Shown here: in pieces, positions 55,726 to 62,638 of the stretch
How the letters are laid out: every line of letters begins with the position of its first letter
Numbering within the stretch: position 1 is the stretch's first letter
From: Candidatus Ornithoclostridium excrementipullorum
GTDB lineage: Bacteria > Bacillota > Clostridia > Christensenellales > UBA3700
Assembly: GCA_018716085.1 (NCBI GenBank)
Contig: DVKK01000021.1
Location: 31,831-95,830 of the forward strand
DNA: 64,000 nucleotides
Direction of reading: 5' to 3'
Notes under the pieces: model-generated
Seen by the model: only the letters and a program-made list of their open reading frames with translations
Told to the model about the DNA's origin: nothing
The model's database searches: none
Position numbers and translations under genes: made by a program

Positions 55726-55781
55726 TTTCACCGGTGGCTTTTTAACACCCCGCCTCTATCCGAAACATCCGATATCGATTC

Positions 55782-56831
55782 CTATTCCGAATATTTGGCT
55801 TTAAGCGCCTCCAATAATTCTTCGGATTCGTTTTTGGAAAGATACGGAGACTTTACGGTACTTGCCCACCAAAAATCTTTTTTCAGAATACCTTTTATTT
55901 CTTTCGGCGAGAGATATCTTATATCGCTTTCTTTTTCAATGGAAGGAGTCAACAAATCAACTTTCAAATACCGTTCCTTTTTTTCTTTGATATCGACGAT
56001 TTGTTTGGACGCGATCCTCCCCGCTCCGACGATCCCCCATCCGGCATGATAGAAGAACGCGTAGTCATTCTTGTTAAAACGCTTTATGAATCTGCGCGCC
56101 GCTCCGTATGCGCTTACTTTTTTATTCTTTATCATATCCCATAACGCATCCGGATTATTGTTCCTGTCGGTATCGAACATAATGCCCTTCCTGTTTTGCG
56201 GGTTCAAATGATAATCGTACGGCTTGGCAAAAAATTCAAAATATATCTCCCCGTGAATAGTATAAAATCTGTACGGAAGAAAATCGATATCTATGCCCTT
56301 TCCTTTCCAAAACTCGATATTATTTATCAAAGCGTCATCCGAAGAATTCCCGACGACGACCAACTTTTGTCTTCTATTGAACTGCCATTCCTGCAACTCT
56401 TCTTCCAACTGAAAAAATTCCCGATGCTCCGTCTTCAATTCTCCTTTGCAATTTTTATGGATCTCATCTTGCCATGATCCTTTTTTGCTTTCACGATATT
56501 TCAGATAGATATCGTTTAACTCGCGATAGTTCTTTTGTCCGTAGATCTGCAAATATTTCATTATCTGCATTGTCGCGTCCTCTTTGGAAACGCACCTTTT
56601 CAATTCAAAAATAACAAGGTCGCCGTTCCTGTTCAACGCTCCCATATCGCATTCTTCTTGGTAGGGTCTCTCCTGTAATATAGGCATCAGAAGATTGTCT
56701 TCGGCATACATCTTCCATAAATTTTGCGCGCACAGATCCTCAAGATCCTTTTCTCTCCCGTCGAGATGCGTAATATCGCAAAATCCCAACTCTTCTAAAT
56801 TTTTATTCGTTTGATTATACTTATACAACAT
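55782..56831 (-). CDS. PD-(D/E)xK (NucS/DUF91-like) nuclease fused to an EVE/PUA-like C-terminal domain; candidate type IV (modification-dependent) restriction enzyme
   Basis: 349 aa in low-GC DNA. The N-terminus EKDLEDL...ECDMGALNRNGDLVIFELKR has a D...ExK pattern. The C-terminus FIKRFNKNDYAFFYHAGWGIVGAGRIAS resembles the EVE core. Confidence 0.5.
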   Translation of the reverse strand: MLYKYNQTNKNLEELGFCDITHLDGREKDLEDLCAQNLWKMYAEDNLLMPILQERPYQEECDMGALNRNGDLVIFELKRCVSKEDATMQIMKYLQIYGQKNYRELNDIYLKYRESKKGSWQDEIHKNCKGELKTEHREFFQLEEELQEWQFNRRQKLVVVGNSSDDALINNIEFWKGKGIDIDFLPYRFYTIHGEIYFEFFAKPYDYHLNPQNRKGIMFDTDRNNNPDALWDMIKNKKVSAYGAARRFIKRFNKNDYAFFYHAGWGIVGAGRIASKQIVDIKEKKERYLKVDLLTPSIEKESDIRYLSPKEIKGILKKDFWWASTVKSPYLSKNESEELLEALKAKYSE

Positions 56832-57037
56832 ACTTTTCCCCGGAAATAATATAAATCCATCCTTCTTTGTGACGGTCAGAATTTGCGCGTCCCGAATATG
56901 CCGATCTTATTTTTATAAAAACCGTTACCGCGTAACATGCTCCTTATGCTGCGGAATGAATGACCGCTCATCTCTCTGCATAATCGAAGAACTTCGGCAT
57001 TTTTATACCGTTGCACTTCATAACGCCTTATGCCGCT

Positions 57038-57262
57038 TTACGTATTGAAAATGAACACCGCATTTTCCCCTTTCAGATACTCGTTCCAATATCCGTTTTT
57101 CAAATTCGTCCGCACAAACTCTTCCCACGTATCGGCAAGATCGATCCCGAAAGAAACGCAGTAATTTTCGCCGTCTTTTTTAATTTCAAAACCGTCACGT
57201 TCGAGCAGCAAAACGTTTTCATCAAAACCCATCGCATAAGAATAACACGTCTGTCCTTTCAC
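57038..57262 (-). CDS. hypothetical 74-aa protein
   Basis: ORF only. No recognisable motif. It may be a gene fragment. Confidence 0.3.
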   Translation of the reverse strand: MKGQTCYSYAMGFDENVLLLERDGFEIKKDGENYCVSFGIDLADTWEEFVRTNLKNGYWNEYLKGENAVFIFNT

Positions 57263-57428
57263 AATGTTACGCCTCCTATTCTAATGCTATCATAGTTTTA
57301 CAATTTTTTCAACCCTCGGCTTTATACTGCGGTCATCGCAACGAAGCGTATTCCCGTATTAAAAAGGTATACGATCCGATCTTTCGGCGTCAGCAAACAG
57401 AATAATGATCGCTTTTCCCCGAGATGAA

Positions 57429-57959
57429 CTATTTATTCCGCCTGAGCCTTTCCGTCATGATTTTCAGGTTCGCCTCGTTCTGCTCATCCGATATGGTCGG
57501 GTCTTTGGTAAACTTTGCGCAAGGAAGTTTTTCGCACGACCCGCAGTTCTCATGCTTTTTGTCGTTCACGCAGCAATCATAGACGGGACATACTTCTGCG
57601 CCGATATATTGCAGCCAGTACACTTCGCCTTTTATTTTGCGGCACCCCGCGCATTGCGACGGATATAGTCCGCATTCGGCGCAAACGGCCCCGCAGGGTG
57701 AAGGCTGCACAAATTCGTCTTTCCAATACCACCATTTGCATTTTTGCGGATCGGGGGCGGGCGAATTTACGAAATATTCGACGGCGCGGTAAAGGTACAG
57801 CTGACATCTGTCGATCGTACACCCGCGGAGCGCGCACTCTTCGGCGTACAGCTGCTCTCCCGTTTTGCCTTTCAACGATCCGATCGTGGTATACCCCATC
57901 GCGAACAGAGCTTGCTCCGTCCGCCTTCCCACGTTCGGGATCTTTTTAAGTTCGCTCAT
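57429..57959 (-). CDS. HhH (Cdd1 'pathogenicity locus'-like) plus Cys-rich DUF3795-like protein
   Basis: 176 aa. The N-terminus LKKIPNVGRRTEQALFAMGYTTIGSL is a helix-hairpin-helix. The C-terminal half has more than 12 Cys in CxxC-type spacing. Confidence 0.5.
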   Translation of the reverse strand: MSELKKIPNVGRRTEQALFAMGYTTIGSLKGKTGEQLYAEECALRGCTIDRCQLYLYRAVEYFVNSPAPDPQKCKWWYWKDEFVQPSPCGAVCAECGLYPSQCAGCRKIKGEVYWLQYIGAEVCPVYDCCVNDKKHENCGSCEKLPCAKFTKDPTISDEQNEANLKIMTERLRRNK

Positions 57960-58149
57960 AACGCACCTATTCCGCCGAATCCCTGATCAAGTCTTGCAAA
58001 TTGACGCGACAACGATAATTATGTAATATTAAAATTATTGACATCCTTGAAACATTTTCCCTATACAACCACTAAAAAGTAATGCAATAACCTTAGCCCC
58101 ATACTATTACTTCTATATTCAAAACAAGTAAATTTCCCATTCCCTTAAA

Positions 58150-58794
58150 TTATTTTGCCACATCGGTATGGCTTATAGTTATTCGCAAATCATTATACTC
58201 GTGCAGAAGATCGCTATAGCTTTTTTTCAAAGCATTTAGTAATATTTTTGTATAAATTCCAACAGTAAAACAACTTATAACCGATATCAATCCAAGTATA
58301 ATAGATATTAAGGCCGAAACAGAAGTTAACACTATACTAACAATATGTATGGCCGAATCATTATCATTTGAAATTATTGTAAATGCTATATTAGTTGCTA
58401 TATAAAAAATAAATAATATACTAAATATAATTTTAATAATTAATAATTTATCTGTAAAGTTGAGCTTATGACGCAAATCTAAATATTTATCATCTATTGA
58501 AGATGATTTACTAGCTTTTTCAAGTCGTTCAATACTATTCACACAATTCTTTATAAATATATCACTGACGTATGTAGCAATTAAGCATACGATAATTGAT
58601 ACCACATTTATTATCATCTCTATTATCGATATAATTATATATCCATCAAAACCAGCATTGCAACAAGAGATGATATAAAATACGGACACTACAAAATACA
58701 ATAAAATTGCGGCTACGGAAATAATAATAGTCCCAACTAAATTTTTCCTACTTGGCAAGATTTGTATTTCATCTATCTTAGTAAATAAACTCAC
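58150..58794 (-). CDS. four-TM membrane protein of unknown function (214 aa), translationally coupled to the upstream gene
   Basis: GTG start overlaps the upstream stop (GTGA at 58791..58794). By eye there are two hydrophobic hairpins, a charged helix between them and a C-terminal charged helix. The DNA is extremely AT-rich. Confidence 0.6.
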   Translation of the reverse strand: MSLFTKIDEIQILPSRKNLVGTIIISVAAILLYFVVSVFYIISCCNAGFDGYIIISIIEMIINVVSIIVCLIATYVSDIFIKNCVNSIERLEKASKSSSIDDKYLDLRHKLNFTDKLLIIKIIFSILFIFYIATNIAFTIISNDNDSAIHIVSIVLTSVSALISIILGLISVISCFTVGIYTKILLNALKKSYSDLLHEYNDLRITISHTDVAK

Positions 58795-59495
58795 TCTTTA
58801 CTCTCTTCTGATATGTTCCACAAATCACAAGTATATGATACGTAAGGATGTAATGTATATGCCTCTAAAAAATGTTCAATGATCTTTGGAGAAATATCTC
58901 TATACATAAGATGATACAACAGTTTCTCATATATTGTATCCAACATTTCTTGAAAATCTTCGAAATAAAAGTTACCATTTGATTTAATTTTTTTACATCT
59001 TTTTTGATTACATAAAGGCTTTTTTGATTCAACAACAAAAATATACCTCAGTAAGAACTTAGCAGCAGCAACCTCATTTAGATGTTTAATCTCTACAATT
59101 TTTATTTTTTTCAAATCGTCATTGTCAATCAAAGGCATTTTTAAAGATTTTATATCTAAATTCATTTCAGCTCTAAACGCTATAGGCTTATGACGAATAA
59201 ACCAATATCCTAAATATGCAGCAATCTTAAAAGGATTTGGGTGTCTTACAATGTTATGTTCACTCGATACAATAGTCTTCAATCCTATCATTGCATCATA
59301 TACAACTTCTTGCAATAAAACAGTATTGATTTCGTAATCTATGCCCACAACACCTCCTACCTCATTATGTAAAGTCTCTATTGTCGCACAAGCAAAATCA
59401 GAAAGCATATTATACCAAGATTTAAACCGATCATCTGTAAAAAAATCATTATCGAGAACTGGCAACTCATCTACAAAAATAGATTTCCTTTGCAT
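58791..59495 (-). CDS. soluble protein of unknown function (234 aa)
   Basis: Uninterrupted ORF in very AT-rich DNA, where stop codons are frequent by chance. I found no Walker A, HExxH, HTH or other motif. Confidence 0.6.
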   Translation of the reverse strand: MQRKSIFVDELPVLDNDFFTDDRFKSWYNMLSDFACATIETLHNEVGGVVGIDYEINTVLLQEVVYDAMIGLKTIVSSEHNIVRHPNPFKIAAYLGYWFIRHKPIAFRAEMNLDIKSLKMPLIDNDDLKKIKIVEIKHLNEVAAAKFLLRYIFVVESKKPLCNQKRCKKIKSNGNFYFEDFQEMLDTIYEKLLYHLMYRDISPKIIEHFLEAYTLHPYVSYTCDLWNISEESKE

Positions 59496-59518
59496 ATATA
59501 TTTTAATCCCCGCAAAAA

Positions 59519-59698
59519 TTATTTCCTATGTTTATTTCTTAAACTTGAAAGAGTTCTTACACTTTTTCTACATTCTTCTTGCGTTATTTTAACTTCTTGA
59601 TAGTTGTTACTCTGAACCATTGTGATACATGTTTCAGATACTTTATCTTCGGGCTTTAAGTGTATTCTATTCGATTTTGTTTTTTTTAATGCAATCAT
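59519..59698 (-). CDS. possible 59-aa basic protein
   Basis: My translation gives MIALKKTKSNRIHLKPEDKVSETCITMVQSNNYQEVKITQEECRKSVRTLSSLRNKHRK. It ends 23 nt before the 234-aa gene. It falls just below the 60-aa minimum seen in the provided ORF track. Confidence 0.35.
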   Translation of the reverse strand: MIALKKTKSNRIHLKPEDKVSETCITMVQSNNYQEVKITQEECRKSVRTLSSLRNKHRK

Positions 59699-60136
59699 AA
59701 TGTTATCCCTTTATTTTTGTTTTTCAATTTTGTTTGTCATTTCTTTCCAGATTTTCATTCTCAATTTGCCTAATGTCTTAATGATCATAACAGCAATACC
59801 ACCTCCCTTATAAATCATAAAGCGATTTTAGGGCTTGATAAAATTGTTTCGATATAGCCTAACAATTCATTATATGTTTCTTTTTTATTGCTTGTTCGGA
59901 TTCGTTATACTTATTGATTTTTTCTTAACATCATAAGAAAAATCAAATATTATATCGAATTCCAACATCCATTAAGTCCTCCATTTTATTTTATGTATAA
60001 TAATTGTACTATATTATAAACATAAAATCAATCAATAATAGATAAATATATTAGAATAATGCAAATTATACAAAATTTTTCAATCATTGCGACAATATTA
60101 TCTACAACATCTCAATTTCACTTTGATAGCATCGAT

Positions 60137-60250
60137 TTATGCATAAGGATGAGCGCCAGAGTGTTTTTGCTCTTCCTCTGCATTTAAGGCGTAATATATC
60201 ATCAAGCCTAAATAGATTAATTCCTCTTTCGGTTTACGGTTTCTACTCAT
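60137..60250 (-). CDS. possible 37-aa peptide or gene remnant
   Basis: GAGGAG lies 8 nt upstream of ATG 60250. Translation: MSRNRKPKEELIYLGLMIYYALNAEEEQKHSGAHPYA. Confidence 0.3.
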   Translation of the reverse strand: MSRNRKPKEELIYLGLMIYYALNAEEEQKHSGAHPYA

Positions 60251-60367
60251 CAATAATTCTCCTCAAAGACATCCTTCCCATTTTCTCTCCGAACTCTACC
60301 TTAACTTTAATATGTTCGTCGGATTTTTTGTAGGAAAGAGCTACTAATGTTTCTACGTAGCAGATGC

Positions 60368-61208
60368 CTACAAAAGGTCTTGTTTTCTAATAGCCGGTTT
60401 ACTTACTTCCTCTTTCCATGAGGCTGCGTCTTTACCAATTTGTTTTTTCAGTTCTTCCAATACGGAGACGGCGTCGCTACCGACGGGCAAGTAAAGCGGC
60501 GGGAGTATCTGAATATGTCACTTCATACAATAAATTACCCAGTTTTTCGGGGTTTCCAACCTGATTGCCTTTACTGTTTTCTTTCATAAAATCTGTCTGC
60601 CAACGGCACTTGTCATAATCGGCTATGTGAATATCGCAGTCCGTCTTTATTTTCGCTCCGTCATAAAAACCTATTCTGAACATCCCGGGCGCGACGTTCG
60701 TCACCCTTATCCCGAACAGTGCGAGTTCAAATGCCAGTGAACAGGAAAAACCTGTAACTGCAAACTTTGAAGAATGATACGCGGTAGGCCCTCCGCAATA
60801 TCCCGCCCCGGATGAGATATTGAATATATGTCCAGAGCGTTGCTTACGCATAAACAGCAGCACGGCTCTCGTCACTCTCATTGTGCCGAACAGGTTTACC
60901 TCAAATACTTCTTTGATGCTTTGCTCGCTTGTTTCTTCAAAATTTGTGATCCTGCCATGTCCGGCATTGTTGACTAAAAATTCTATTTTCCCGGATTTTT
61001 CGACAGCAGTTTTTGCGGCTTTGTCGAAAAGGCTTTGGTCTTGTTGCGATACGTCCAATTTTATCGTCAAAGTCTGTCCGTGGCATTACGATTGTTAAGC
61101 TGCCGTTCCGCGTTGCCGCTGCCACACATCTCCGTGTTTCAACGCAGCGTTTACGATTGCTGAACCGATACCGCCGCTCGCTGCCGTTACAAACCACACC
61201 TTTTCCAT
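60368..61208 (-). pseudogene. frameshifted short-chain dehydrogenase/reductase (SDR)
   Basis: The N-terminus MEKVWFVTAASGGIGSAIVNAALKHGD (from ATG 61208, AAGGAG RBS), the core ...NNAG...SSGAGY...YHSSK (ORF 60477..61070) and the C-terminal PPLYLPVGSDAV... segment lie in different frames. At least two, probably three, frame changes. Confidence 0.75.
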
Positions 61209-61264
61209 ATATTTTCTCCTTAATGCAATTAAATCTTTTTGAATCACCTTCTCCTGACCGCCGT

Positions 61265-62638
61265 CTACTTTCTTTCGAGACAAATTAGAGTTTCGACGTG
61301 TTTTGTCTGCGGAAACATATCGTACGGGGTGACGGACGCAACGTCGTACTTGCCGACCATGGCGGAGATATCGCGCGCGAGGGTCGCGGGATTGCAGGAC
61401 ACGTAGATCACCTTATCGGGCGCGGATTCGAGCAGAGCGTCGATAACGCGACGGTCGCACCCTTTGCGAGGCGGATCGAGTATCACGACGGACGGGGCAT
61501 TCCTTGCCGCCGTATCGGCGACTAATCCGGGCAGGGCGTCGGCGCAGTCCGCGCAGATGTTGACGACTTTGCCCGTATTGCCGTTAAGCGCGGTAAGCGC
61601 GTCGGCGTCGGCGACCGCCTGCGGTACTATCTCTATCCCCGTGACGGAGCGCGCGCTCGGCGCGATCGCGTTGGTGAGTATTCCGGTGCCGCTGTAAGCG
61701 TCGATAACTTCCGCGCCGGGAGTTTTGCCGACCTCGTCGGCGACGGCGGAATAAATAAGGTCGCGTACGCCGTCGTTTATCTGCAAAAACGAAAGAGGTC
61801 CCGCCTCCGCCTTGATCCCCAGAACTTCGAAACGAAGTTTTTCTTCCCCGCAGAGCAACGTCAGCGGGCCTTGCATTATCACGTTGGTCGGAGCGGTATT
61901 GGCGCAGAAGTACAGCGAAAACCTTATCCCGAGGTCGCGGTAAGCCGCGATGAGCTTTTTAAATGCGGGCAAAGCCGAACCGTTACCGACGACGACGATA
62001 CAGTACGCTCCGCCCGCTCTGCGCGCGACGAAATGCCGCAGGAACCCTTTCCTCGTTTTTTCGTCGTAGCACGACAGCCCGCTCTCTTCGGCAAAACTGA
62101 GAAACACGTCCAGAAGTCTCTGCATATCGCGCCCGTACATGGCGCACCCCGAGCCCGCGCCGCTCGGGTCGGAGAACGGCACGATCCTGTGCGTACCTTC
62201 CGCGAAATATCCCGCCGCGGGCTTGCCGTCCGCGCCGTATCCTATCGGCACCTGTATCTTATTGCGGTAACCGAATACGGACGGCGACGGCACTGTGGGC
62301 TTTACGTCTATATCGGCGCCGCAAGCCTTGCGAAGGCACGAACGTACGTTGGCGCGTTTCGCCTCGAGTTGCGACGGGTAATCCATATGTTGCAGATCGC
62401 AGCTCCCGCACTTGAAAAATATCGGACAGACGGGTCTTACCCTGTGCGGCGACGGAGATATCAATTTGATCACGCCCGCTCTCGCAAATCGGCTTCTGAC
62501 CTCTTTGACCATTACGCGCACGCGTTCTCCCGTCAATGTATGAGGCACGAAGACGACCATGCCGTCGCAGCGCGCGACGCCCTCGCCTTCCATACCTTCG
62601 GATACTATTTCGAGTTCGAGAATATCTCCTTTCTTCAC
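61265..62638 (-). CDS. rlmD: 23S rRNA (uracil-5-)-methyltransferase RlmD/RumA family
   Basis: 457 aa. TRAM domain (GDILELEIVSEGMEGEGVAR), the 4Fe-4S Cys set CPIFFKCGSC plus a fourth Cys, a SAM-binding fold, and C-terminal YVSCNPATLARD. GTG start. Confidence 0.88.
   Translation of the reverse strand: MKKGDILELEIVSEGMEGEGVARCDGMVVFVPHTLTGERVRVMVKEVRSRFARAGVIKLISPSPHRVRPVCPIFFKCGSCDLQHMDYPSQLEAKRANVRSCLRKACGADIDVKPTVPSPSVFGYRNKIQVPIGYGADGKPAAGYFAEGTHRIVPFSDPSGAGSGCAMYGRDMQRLLDVFLSFAEESGLSCYDEKTRKGFLRHFVARRAGGAYCIVVVGNGSALPAFKKLIAAYRDLGIRFSLYFCANTAPTNVIMQGPLTLLCGEEKLRFEVLGIKAEAGPLSFLQINDGVRDLIYSAVADEVGKTPGAEVIDAYSGTGILTNAIAPSARSVTGIEIVPQAVADADALTALNGNTGKVVNICADCADALPGLVADTAARNAPSVVILDPPRKGCDRRVIDALLESAPDKVIYVSCNPATLARDISAMVGKYDVASVTPYDMFPQTKHVETLICLERK

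Follow-up and report, generated by a model that had tools for sequence, protein, structure and literature searches.

The 64-kb stretch of the Candidatus Ornithoclostridium excrementipullorum (Christensenellales) genome analysed here, referred to as the window and the source of all coordinates unless a locus is named, harbours between a tetR gene and rlmD/rumA a block of low-G+C DNA (55726-61264) whose AT-rich core (58016-60100) contains a small gene cassette. The block has a G+C content of 37.5% versus 55.6% in the remaining window, and the core, at 0.273, falls more than 15 standard deviations (sd) under the latter; 2-kb windows in 1-55000 had a mean of 0.556 (sd 0.018), the lowest being at 0.51. 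This is the sole such anomaly, as a 1-kb scan of all 64 kb gave values below 0.47 nowhere outside the block. The G+C contents that a first-pass annotation of the window had counted by hand in three 60-nt lines (10%, 32% and 65%) were reproduced by computation (10.0% at 58381-58440, 31.7% at 58801-58860 and 65.0% at 61321-61380), and so was its description of the block as a mosaic, with segments ranging from 27% to 53% (41% at 55730-57400, 53% at 57429-57959, 27% at 58016-60100, 36.5% at 60100-60362 and 46% at 60368-61207). All genes of the block are on the minus strand. Neither integrase, transposase nor tRNA had been seen in it, in agreement with the lack of Pfam matches to integrase or transposase families among the scanned open reading frames (ORFs) of the block and of tRNA genes in a scan of the whole window. 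The relaxase, integrase and recombinase Pfam domains of an intact integrative mobilisable or conjugative element were likewise missing among these ORFs, tblastx of the gaps in the block against element-bearing loci found no recombinase remnants, and an Rfam scan of 54-64 kb at E values up to 1 returned chance matches only, far under the family thresholds. Compared loci or contigs are labelled L and compared proteins P, each followed by a number. From rlmD towards tetR, the first part of the locus is composed of the following features.

61265-62638, minus strand: rlmD/rumA, 23S rRNA m5U methyltransferase gene with Pfam TRAM and tRNA_U5-meth_tr domains; native
61300-61286, minus strand: direct repeat copy 1, CACGTCGAAACTCTA, equal to rlmD codons HVETL as read from the sequence; point of divergence between alleles
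60368-61207, minus strand: short-chain dehydrogenase (SDR) pseudogene; Pfam adh_short, 1e-34, on a 197-aa fragment; 46% G+C
60359-60345, minus strand: direct repeat copy 2, TACGTAGAAACATTA, equal to YVETL, within a decayed copy of the rlmD end
60359-60100, minus strand: decayed second rlmD 3' end with a C-terminal tail of ~100 aa, identified by tblastx; frameshifts and an internal deletion of ~80 nt
59969-60060, minus strand: upstream (promoter) region of the cassette, where blastn homology with L097 begins
59726-59968, minus strand: accessory first cassette gene of 81-83 aa, a pseudogene here; tblastn with the proteins of L097, L099 and L110, E 1e-10 to 1e-14
59519-59698, minus strand: orf59, intact, for a basic 59-aa protein (isoelectric point 10) with the motif (I/L)T(M/L)VQxNxY; at least 9 loci of both subgroups have a homologue at this position
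58791-59495, minus strand: p234, intact, for a 234-aa all-alpha protein of orphan fold; 41 of 41 invariant residues retained in the alignment
58150-58794, minus strand: TM214, intact; hydropathy analysis gives four hydrophobic spans, and an amphipathic helix at the C-terminus
57429-57959, minus strand: gene with Cdd1 (helix-hairpin-helix) and DUF3795 domains (Pfam); 53% G+C

Synteny with the relatives L001-L003 is perfect upstream of rlmD, and rlmD itself is collinear with theirs to its stop codon, where synteny ends, to return only for the Cdd1/DUF3795 gene. The functional C-terminus encoded in the window reads ...KHVETLICLERK, and its final seven codons, ICLERK (61285-61265), lie past the recombination point. 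Near-identical rlmD alleles within the species were found to have four alternative C-termini that diverge exactly after ...KHVETL, continuing as ICLERK*, AVLCRK*, AVLKRKNK* or AVLKRHTVDRHFQFQRREA*. The boundary on this side, earlier placed at 61264, is thus inside rlmD, after the HVETL codons at 61285/61286. The two repeat copies, CACGTCGAAACTCTA and TACGTAGAAACATTA, have 11 of 15 nucleotides in common, and the 926 nt between them hold the new rlmD terminus and the SDR pseudogene. Flanking direct repeats had not been obvious to the first-pass annotation; an imperfect repeat does exist, and it brackets the SDR segment only, not the block.

The stretch that follows the second repeat copy reads as another rlmD end. 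In a translated comparison of 60050-60480 with relatives, 60359-60100 was found to encode YVETLVALSYKKSDEHIKVKVEFGEK... and, further on, ...LGLMIYYALNAEEEQKHSGAHP, and by tblastx this remnant matched the rlmD tails of L062, L069, L045, L048, L036, L073, L002 and L041. The duplication was detected because the comparison with relatives was made at the translated level; a generic repeat search of 55600-61400, which gave no convincing att-like repeat, missed it. The tail of ~100 aa (...YKDIQxYIEExYGFKVHTAYIAEVKRxLGLPMYDAPN...) extends RlmD/RumA in 8 of the 80 relatives whose rlmD loci were compared. It is in frame with rlmD in L045 (11402-11719) and L062 (11345-11650) and frameshifted in L002 (3025-3342), with a related tail at 3531-3782 of L127. 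Between genomes, tails share 61-87% identity where the rlmD bodies share 38-75%, the tail being the better conserved in 14 of 15 pairs. The tail is also found free-standing: Enterococcus plasmids encode it as an 83-aa 'hypothetical protein' within the resistance cluster ant(6)-Ia-spw-lsa(E)-lnu(B), and it occurs inside '_rum' prophages. On these comparisons the tail may be borne by elements, and possibly represents the portion exchanged on integration into rumA. The order in L002, where the tail precedes Cdd1, suggests instead that the remnant in the window is ancestral.

The SDR gene that separates the two rlmD ends is inactive. A frameshift had already been noted in it, and three-frame reading revealed at least three changes of frame; identical frameshifts are present in independent assemblies. 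No uninterrupted functional SDR frame was found, the nucleotide-binding motif reads TAASGGIG instead of TGxxxGxG, and none of the 80 relatives' rlmD loci had a match to the gene.

In streptococci and Clostridioides difficile, rumA is targeted by integrative and conjugative elements (ICEs) that have one serine integrase each, and integration swaps the 3' parts of the gene and thereby alters the C-terminus in length and in sequence (PMC4701971). The scar that such an event would be expected to leave, namely a junction in the rumA 3' end, an altered C-terminus and a direct repeat of short length, is present in the window. The likeness to these ICEs and to the '_rum' prophages thus comprises the gene family, the gene end, the altered C-terminus, the short junction repeat and the termini that vary among strains. 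The window differs from them in having neither serine integrase nor conjugation genes, in that the intervening DNA is a single pseudogene, and in the degeneracy of the repeat; no serine integrase gene with the other att half was found in the window. Of 42 relatives that had sufficient flanking sequence, 10 showed a dip in G+C of 0.12 or more within 5 kb downstream of rlmD and 1 showed such a dip upstream, and the low-GC genes behind rlmD in relatives include those for a PADLOC TIR-TM protein (1.6e-74), PDC-S01 (8.5e-119), a DUF2971 protein and an Nmad3 protein. In L115, the cassette adjoins an rlmD-like gene at its 3' end.

By its host-like G+C content and a 74% identical orthologue directly behind rlmD in the sister species L002 (whose rlmD is 70% identical), the Cdd1/DUF3795 gene is native and, on sequence comparison, lies outside every insert. 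Its near-host composition had been noted from the start, and its Pfam domains match the first assignment. This gene divides the low-GC DNA into an rlmD-side part and a tetR-side part. Sister species carry nothing of the block other than Cdd1/DUF3795, in support of the earlier claims that the remainder is foreign and acquired; the refuting case named at first, with these genes of similar composition at this locus in all relatives, is not what was observed. The best explanation, which we hold with reasonable though not high confidence, is that the rlmD 3' end is a recombination hotspot at which foreign pieces were added serially, including a defence-type cassette and a gene for a nuclease fused to an EVE domain (NucS-EVE). 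At least three separate acquisitions would have piled up there around the native Cdd1/DUF3795 gene; in one of them a replaced rlmD terminus and the SDR gene would have been inserted at the rlmD 3' end, leaving the decayed earlier terminus and tail as a scar. The hotspot character of the region, likened at first to that of a defence island, is borne out by these scars, by the closest NucS-EVE homologue, which likewise lies behind an rlmD, and by the defence-type genes behind rlmD in relatives.

Certain observations weigh against this explanation. The direct repeat matches at no more than 11 of its 15 positions, and no recombinase gene was detected in the window, such that the mechanism of insertion is deduced from the scars and the literature. 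The origin of the tail is also two-sided, since L002 has the tail followed by Cdd1, yet conservation of the tail exceeds that of the rlmD body; and sister species display short and long forms of rlmD alike, which bears on a possible reading in which the current rlmD end would have come with the element and the long tail would be the native end. As a defence hotspot the island is itself ordinary, the site being already known in streptococci and C. difficile. What the window adds is that in Christensenellales the rumA/rlmD 3' end would serve as an accretion site for integrase-less cargo consisting of single defence operons. The sequence after the KHVETL codons thereby offers a simple marker for mining variable immune cargo in gut metagenomes. 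As a minor point on annotation, rlmD of the window encodes 457 aa, while database calls of the gene use a later start codon.

The AT-rich core had been described as a two-gene cassette with micro-ORFs but is in fact an operon of four genes, one dead and three intact, in a cassette of ~2.1 kb with 27% G+C and its own promoter region. Positions 60060-58816 of the window align by blastn with 7437-8680 of L097, the homology beginning ~90 nt upstream of the first gene. Promoter-like hexamers are present at 60083-60003, near-consensus promoters occupy the corresponding position in homologous cassettes, and several of these cassettes end in a hairpin followed by a T-run, read as a terminator. The first gene is interrupted by four in-frame stops, equally readable as two frameshifts and one stop. 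Recoding was considered for this gene and rejected, as both TAA and TGA occur among the stops and a different frame gives the better reading of its middle part. Some cassettes lack the 81-83-aa gene altogether; it is considered accessory, so that its loss here need not inactivate the system. The start of TM214 overlaps the stop codon of p234 (GTGA), and TM214 is 29-35% identical to the four-span transmembrane (4-TM) partners in L097, L099 and L110. Between L099 and L112 the ratio of non-synonymous to synonymous substitution rates (dN/dS) was 0.04 for both the 81-aa and the p233 gene and 0 for the 58-aa gene, which has no non-synonymous differences; values of 0.04 or less in the first three cassette genes support these as real genes under purifying selection. 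The TM gene had a ratio of 0.45, calculated from few substitutions.

Family searches did not place the three intact genes. The product of orf59 had no Pfam or NCBIfam matches and one weak PHROG match (E 0.096), to an entry without function, and TM214 had none in PADLOC-DB 2.0.0. For p234 no matches were obtained in Pfam, NCBIfam, PHROGs or the sequences of the PDB, and PADLOC returned only its '2TM effector' model at an insignificant E value of 0.019. A profile search of 1.84 billion representative proteins retrieved 142 relatives of p234; none of its 48 homologous clusters has a Pfam domain, the distant relatives had no PADLOC matches, and no relatives were found in IMG/VR viral contigs, GenBank phages or PLSDB plasmids. 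The next-nearest homologue, 66% identical, is from an unrelated low-GC genome. The AlphaFold2 model of p234 is all-alpha with a pLDDT of 83 and a pTM of 0.82, and Foldseek gave no matches with E below 0.1 in PDB or BFVD. The module of three genes is therefore small, rare and well conserved, and is built around a fold that is predicted with confidence yet without a Foldseek match in these collections.

The same gene order was found in ~23 fetched loci (some of them near-duplicates), which represent ~10 different genomic settings. In all of them a protein of 57-77 aa with the (I/L)T(M/L)VQxNxY motif is encoded ahead of the p234 homologue and a small membrane protein behind it, often with an overlap between the stop codon of the p234 homologue and the start codon of the membrane protein. 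The membrane partner has ~215 aa and four spans in the close subgroup, and 108-134 aa and two spans in the divergent subgroup. Two of the 142 relatives are fusions, in which a p234-like domain is joined to TIR_2 (P0172, 5e-43) or to HD-CE (P0176, 4e-32), and P0311, a 67% identical relative of P0172, is present on six contigs. The loci of TIR fusions are without the small protein and without the downstream TM gene, which fits a p234-like domain that serves as sensor or regulator, with TM, TIR and HD domains as interchangeable effectors. A literature search on HD-CE, TIR and effector together found no papers. In L124 (4049-6306) and also in L125 and L126, a 215-aa protein with two N-terminal TM helices, a soluble domain and no Pfam matches is encoded 348 nt upstream of the TIR fusion, and the two may form a TIR-signal and membrane-effector pair of the Thoeris kind.

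Cassettes have conspicuous neighbours. These include a tyrosine integrase and Mob_Pre in L097 and L102, serine recombinases together with IetA/IetS (PADLOC E 1e-143 and 0) in L104 and L115, and, in L110, an OLD-TOPRIM ATPase with a UvrD helicase (the Gabija architecture, judged from domains), Fic and RT-bAvd; some cassettes adjoin relaxases other than Mob_Pre. The IetA/IetS genes (AAA ATPase and S8 protease) are at 10278-13570 of L104 and 3446-7008 of L115, next to cassettes of subgroups 46% and 36% identical to p234, and their presence beside two subgroups may point to a common family of elements or to a functional connection. In L097 (376-3330), a 984-aa Hsp70-like protein and a 285-aa partner are encoded beside the integrase of the mobilisable element that bears the cassette, and the Hsp70-like gene may be another defence-type cargo.

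The architecture resembles that of SLATT 2TM proteins, Pycsar PycTM and Kiwa KwaA (4TM)/KwaB in the combination of a soluble partner with a small 2- or 4-TM protein that has a cytoplasmic helical segment, in carriage by defence islands, in translational coupling and in an effector that is interchangeable with TIR or HD domains. It differs from them in that no family match is significant, that the best values (RTasSLATT and SLATT_4) were each obtained on a single 2-TM homologue and not on the 4-TM protein of the window, that the soluble partner is without nucleotide cyclase, SMODS or DUF4868, and that an additional conserved protein of 57-77 aa is encoded. The SLATT test itself remained sub-threshold, with RTasSLATT at 1e-3 on the 2-TM partner of L115, and SLATT_4 at 9e-3, DUF4231 at 0.015 and PycTM at 0.1 on a few members of the TM proteins.

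Because of its context and architecture, the cassette most likely encodes a predicted sensor and a membrane effector that would act by abortive infection. In this model p234 would sense or regulate, possibly being held back or triggered through the 59-aa protein, and would then activate the translationally coupled 4-TM protein, with membrane damage and abortive infection as the outcome. The fusions to TIR and HD-CE and the IetAS, Gabija-like and RT-bAvd neighbours mark the cassette as a candidate new immune system that would employ a membrane effector. We advance only tentatively the fuller proposition, namely that orf59, p234 and the 4-TM gene constitute an undescribed anti-phage or abortive-infection system in which p234 is a modular domain coupled to 2/4-TM, TIR or HD-CE effectors, and which spreads as a promoter-to-terminator cassette among the mobile elements of gut Firmicutes. 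The defence reading as a whole is weakened by the first cassette gene being dead in the window and by the sub-threshold resemblance of the TM proteins to SLATT, and a role in phage defence is a proposal from context and architecture.

The main rival, which we consider unlikely but which deserves to be taken seriously, is that the cassette is a toxin-antitoxin (addiction) or entry-exclusion module serving its carrier elements, in which the 4-TM protein would be the toxin or the exclusion factor. Such a role would agree with the frequent location of the cassette at the edge of integrative mobilisable elements, beside integrase and relaxase genes, with its small and self-contained form and own promoter, with the translational coupling of the membrane protein to its partner, and with the persistence of the cassette in the window without any element. 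Addiction modules and abortive-infection systems moreover overlap mechanistically. Against an addiction or exclusion role stand the TIR and HD-CE fusions and the IetAS, Gabija-like and RT-bAvd neighbours, which are typical of immune systems.

On the tetR side of Cdd1/DUF3795 the block consists of a pair of genes and ends at a palindrome.

56876-57262, minus strand: 128-codon gene, by translation interrupted at codon 75 by a premature stop (57038-57040)
55782-56831, minus strand: NucS-like PD-(D/E)XK nuclease fused to EVE, 349 aa, intact; PADLOC, Pfam, PDB profile and Foldseek matches
55691-55725, no strand assigned: perfect 17-nt palindrome (ATATTGACCCAAAGTCA T TGACTTTGGGTCAATAT) from the inverted-repeat search, overlapping the tetR promoter

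The 349-aa protein, named by NCBI as an EVE domain-containing protein, is predicted on the strength of its domains to be a modification-dependent (type IV) restriction endonuclease of Madara/PDC-S11 architecture. Residues 26-198 match PADLOC PDC-S11 at 1.3e-13, a PDB profile matches NucS (2vld, 4e-7), and residues D61, E75, K77, Q88 and Y92 are invariant in 24 homologues. The Pfam EVE match (E 9e-5, 22.9 bits) is just under the cut-off of 23. The AlphaFold2 model (pLDDT 82) found SduA, NucS and the EVE protein PH1033 by Foldseek, PH1033 and MJECL36 both at probability 1.00 with TM-scores of 0.45-0.58 normalised to the target. The EVE domain would recognise modified bases in phage DNA, which the PD-(D/E)XK domain would cut.

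Madara (PDC-S11) is a single-gene, modification-dependent defence nuclease of E. coli ECOR34 that restricts T4 with glucosyl-hydroxymethylcytosine (glucosyl-hmC), spares unmodified T4 and needs the nuclease Asp (bioRxiv 10.64898/2026.09.05.749240). It shares with the protein at 55782-56831 the layout of an N-terminal NucS-like PD-(D/E)XK domain, a linker and a C-terminal EVE-type domain in ~350 aa, and the catalytic Asp/Glu-x-Lys motif is retained in the protein of the window. The two differ in that the C-terminal half of Madara is only distantly EVE-like whereas that of the window protein matches canonical Pfam EVE and archaeal PH1033, and in their hosts, E. coli versus a Firmicute here. A full-length match was not obtained, as all five PDC-S11 profiles cover only about the first 200 residues; since they match the nuclease half only, the protein is filed as Madara-like or type IV EVE-nuclease-like and not as a proven family member. 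It is also akin to the type IV enzymes that join a PUA or EVE domain to a nuclease (PMC6765204; EVE survey PMC7641849) in being encoded by a single gene in a variable region and in combining a reader of modified bases with a nuclease, the enzymes screened in PMC6765204 having PUA-type (or DUF3427) readers with HNH or PD-(D/E)XK nucleases. The closest homologue, 56% identical and with a G+C content of 33% in a 43% genome, is encoded one gene behind an rlmD that is 48% identical. In L120 (5751-6869), the gene between rlmD and the nuclease gene encodes a 372-aa protein of low G+C (31%) with a C-terminal membrane segment and no family matches.

The two sides of Cdd1/DUF3795 differ in their spread through the population, as measured by clusters at 90% identity (sequence variants) and by the contig counts listed per variant. 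There were three variants of p234 and a single one each of TM214, orf59, the SDR fragment and the ORF in the rlmD-tail remnant, versus 34 of NucS-EVE, 37 of the 128-codon gene, 38 of Cdd1/DUF3795 and 30 of TetR. Each of the five former was found on at most ~10 contigs (the SDR fragment on 10), and the summed contig counts of the listed variants were ~100 or more each for NucS-EVE, Cdd1/DUF3795 and TetR; the exact TetR allele of the window was found on 66 contigs. With so few variants and contigs for the cassette and SDR gene versus many for the tetR side, the most AT-rich part is probably the youngest, and the unameliorated 27% G+C of the cassette fits a young age. The block of SDR gene, tail and cassette thus appears lineage-specific and young. 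The first-pass annotation had taken the whole for an old or degraded acquisition, which does not agree with the intact core genes of this part, yet several genes of the block are indeed decayed. The nuclease pair, at 41% G+C, is species-wide and without counterpart in sister species, and would represent an older acquisition by the species. The cassette of ~2.1 kb would be a lineage-specific arrival of an operon that elsewhere is cargo of integrative mobilisable elements and defence islands. A point that counts against so recent an arrival is that absence of the cassette from other strains is deduced from cluster membership and contig counts, rather than from an empty site directly seen. Taken by kind, the island and the nuclease are known, and the uncharacterised piece is the three-gene conflict cassette, which is probably recent and largely intact.

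A single composite mobile element or old island, inserted once between tetR and rlmD and since decayed, as had first been envisaged, is an improbable source of this arrangement and largely refuted. The genes are all on one strand, the low G+C is contiguous from 55.7 to 61.3 kb, and several pseudogenes without any recombinase left would suit a decayed element. The central Cdd1/DUF3795 gene is native, with host-like G+C and its orthologue directly behind rlmD in L002, and the pieces that flank it differ sharply in population distribution; in addition, the cassette and the nuclease-EVE gene are found separately elsewhere, and the repeat brackets the SDR part only. That the block is instead ancestral, its low G+C resulting from local constraints, would accord with its presence in every sampled contig of this exact lineage; this reading is refuted by the distribution data, in that sister species are without all but Cdd1, most contigs with the neighbouring genes are without the cassette proteins, and cassette homologues reside on mobile elements in unrelated low-GC Firmicutes. 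Serial additions at the rlmD 3' end remain the preferred reading.

Nor do the junctions of the block stem from faulty assembly. At least 12 samples, from several projects, yielded contigs whose overlap with the window is 99.9-100% identical to it; the whole block is spanned by L081 (104 kb) and L082, and L083 reaches from rlmD into the cassette. A chimera of binning or assembly, by which the DNA of a low-GC organism was joined to this metagenome-assembled genome (MAG), might be suspected from the extreme contrast of 27% versus 56% G+C and from the frequent breaks of low-coverage assemblies within the segment, but is most improbable when the NCBI MAG and the long contigs L081, L082 and L083, which come from different samples and assemblers, have identical junctions on both sides, and short contigs overlap these at 100% identity. 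Low-coverage metagenome assemblies often break in 58000-60350 (L084-L086 and L089-L096); the cassette is hence often found on separate contigs of 1-1.5 kb, and could be missed in surveys.

The 74-aa ORF first reported next to the nuclease gene is real, but constitutes only the first 74 codons of the 128-codon gene, ahead of its premature stop. The gene had no matches in Pfam (in which the N-terminal 74-aa part was scanned), in PDB or among plasmids, and other strains have an intact allele of 128 aa that is otherwise identical (P0349). The allele with the stop at 57038-57040 is common: 43 contigs have the exact 74-aa product, and C-terminal calls of the gene give 75 aa on 45 contigs and 79 aa on 23, while intact 128-aa alleles coexist with these. 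The palindrome at 55691-55725 marks the limit of the foreign DNA on the tetR side. A near-consensus promoter-like site is located at 55708-55680, just upstream of tetR, and the palindrome is probably the TetR operator, predicted to control tetR and the downstream aldo-keto reductase genes.

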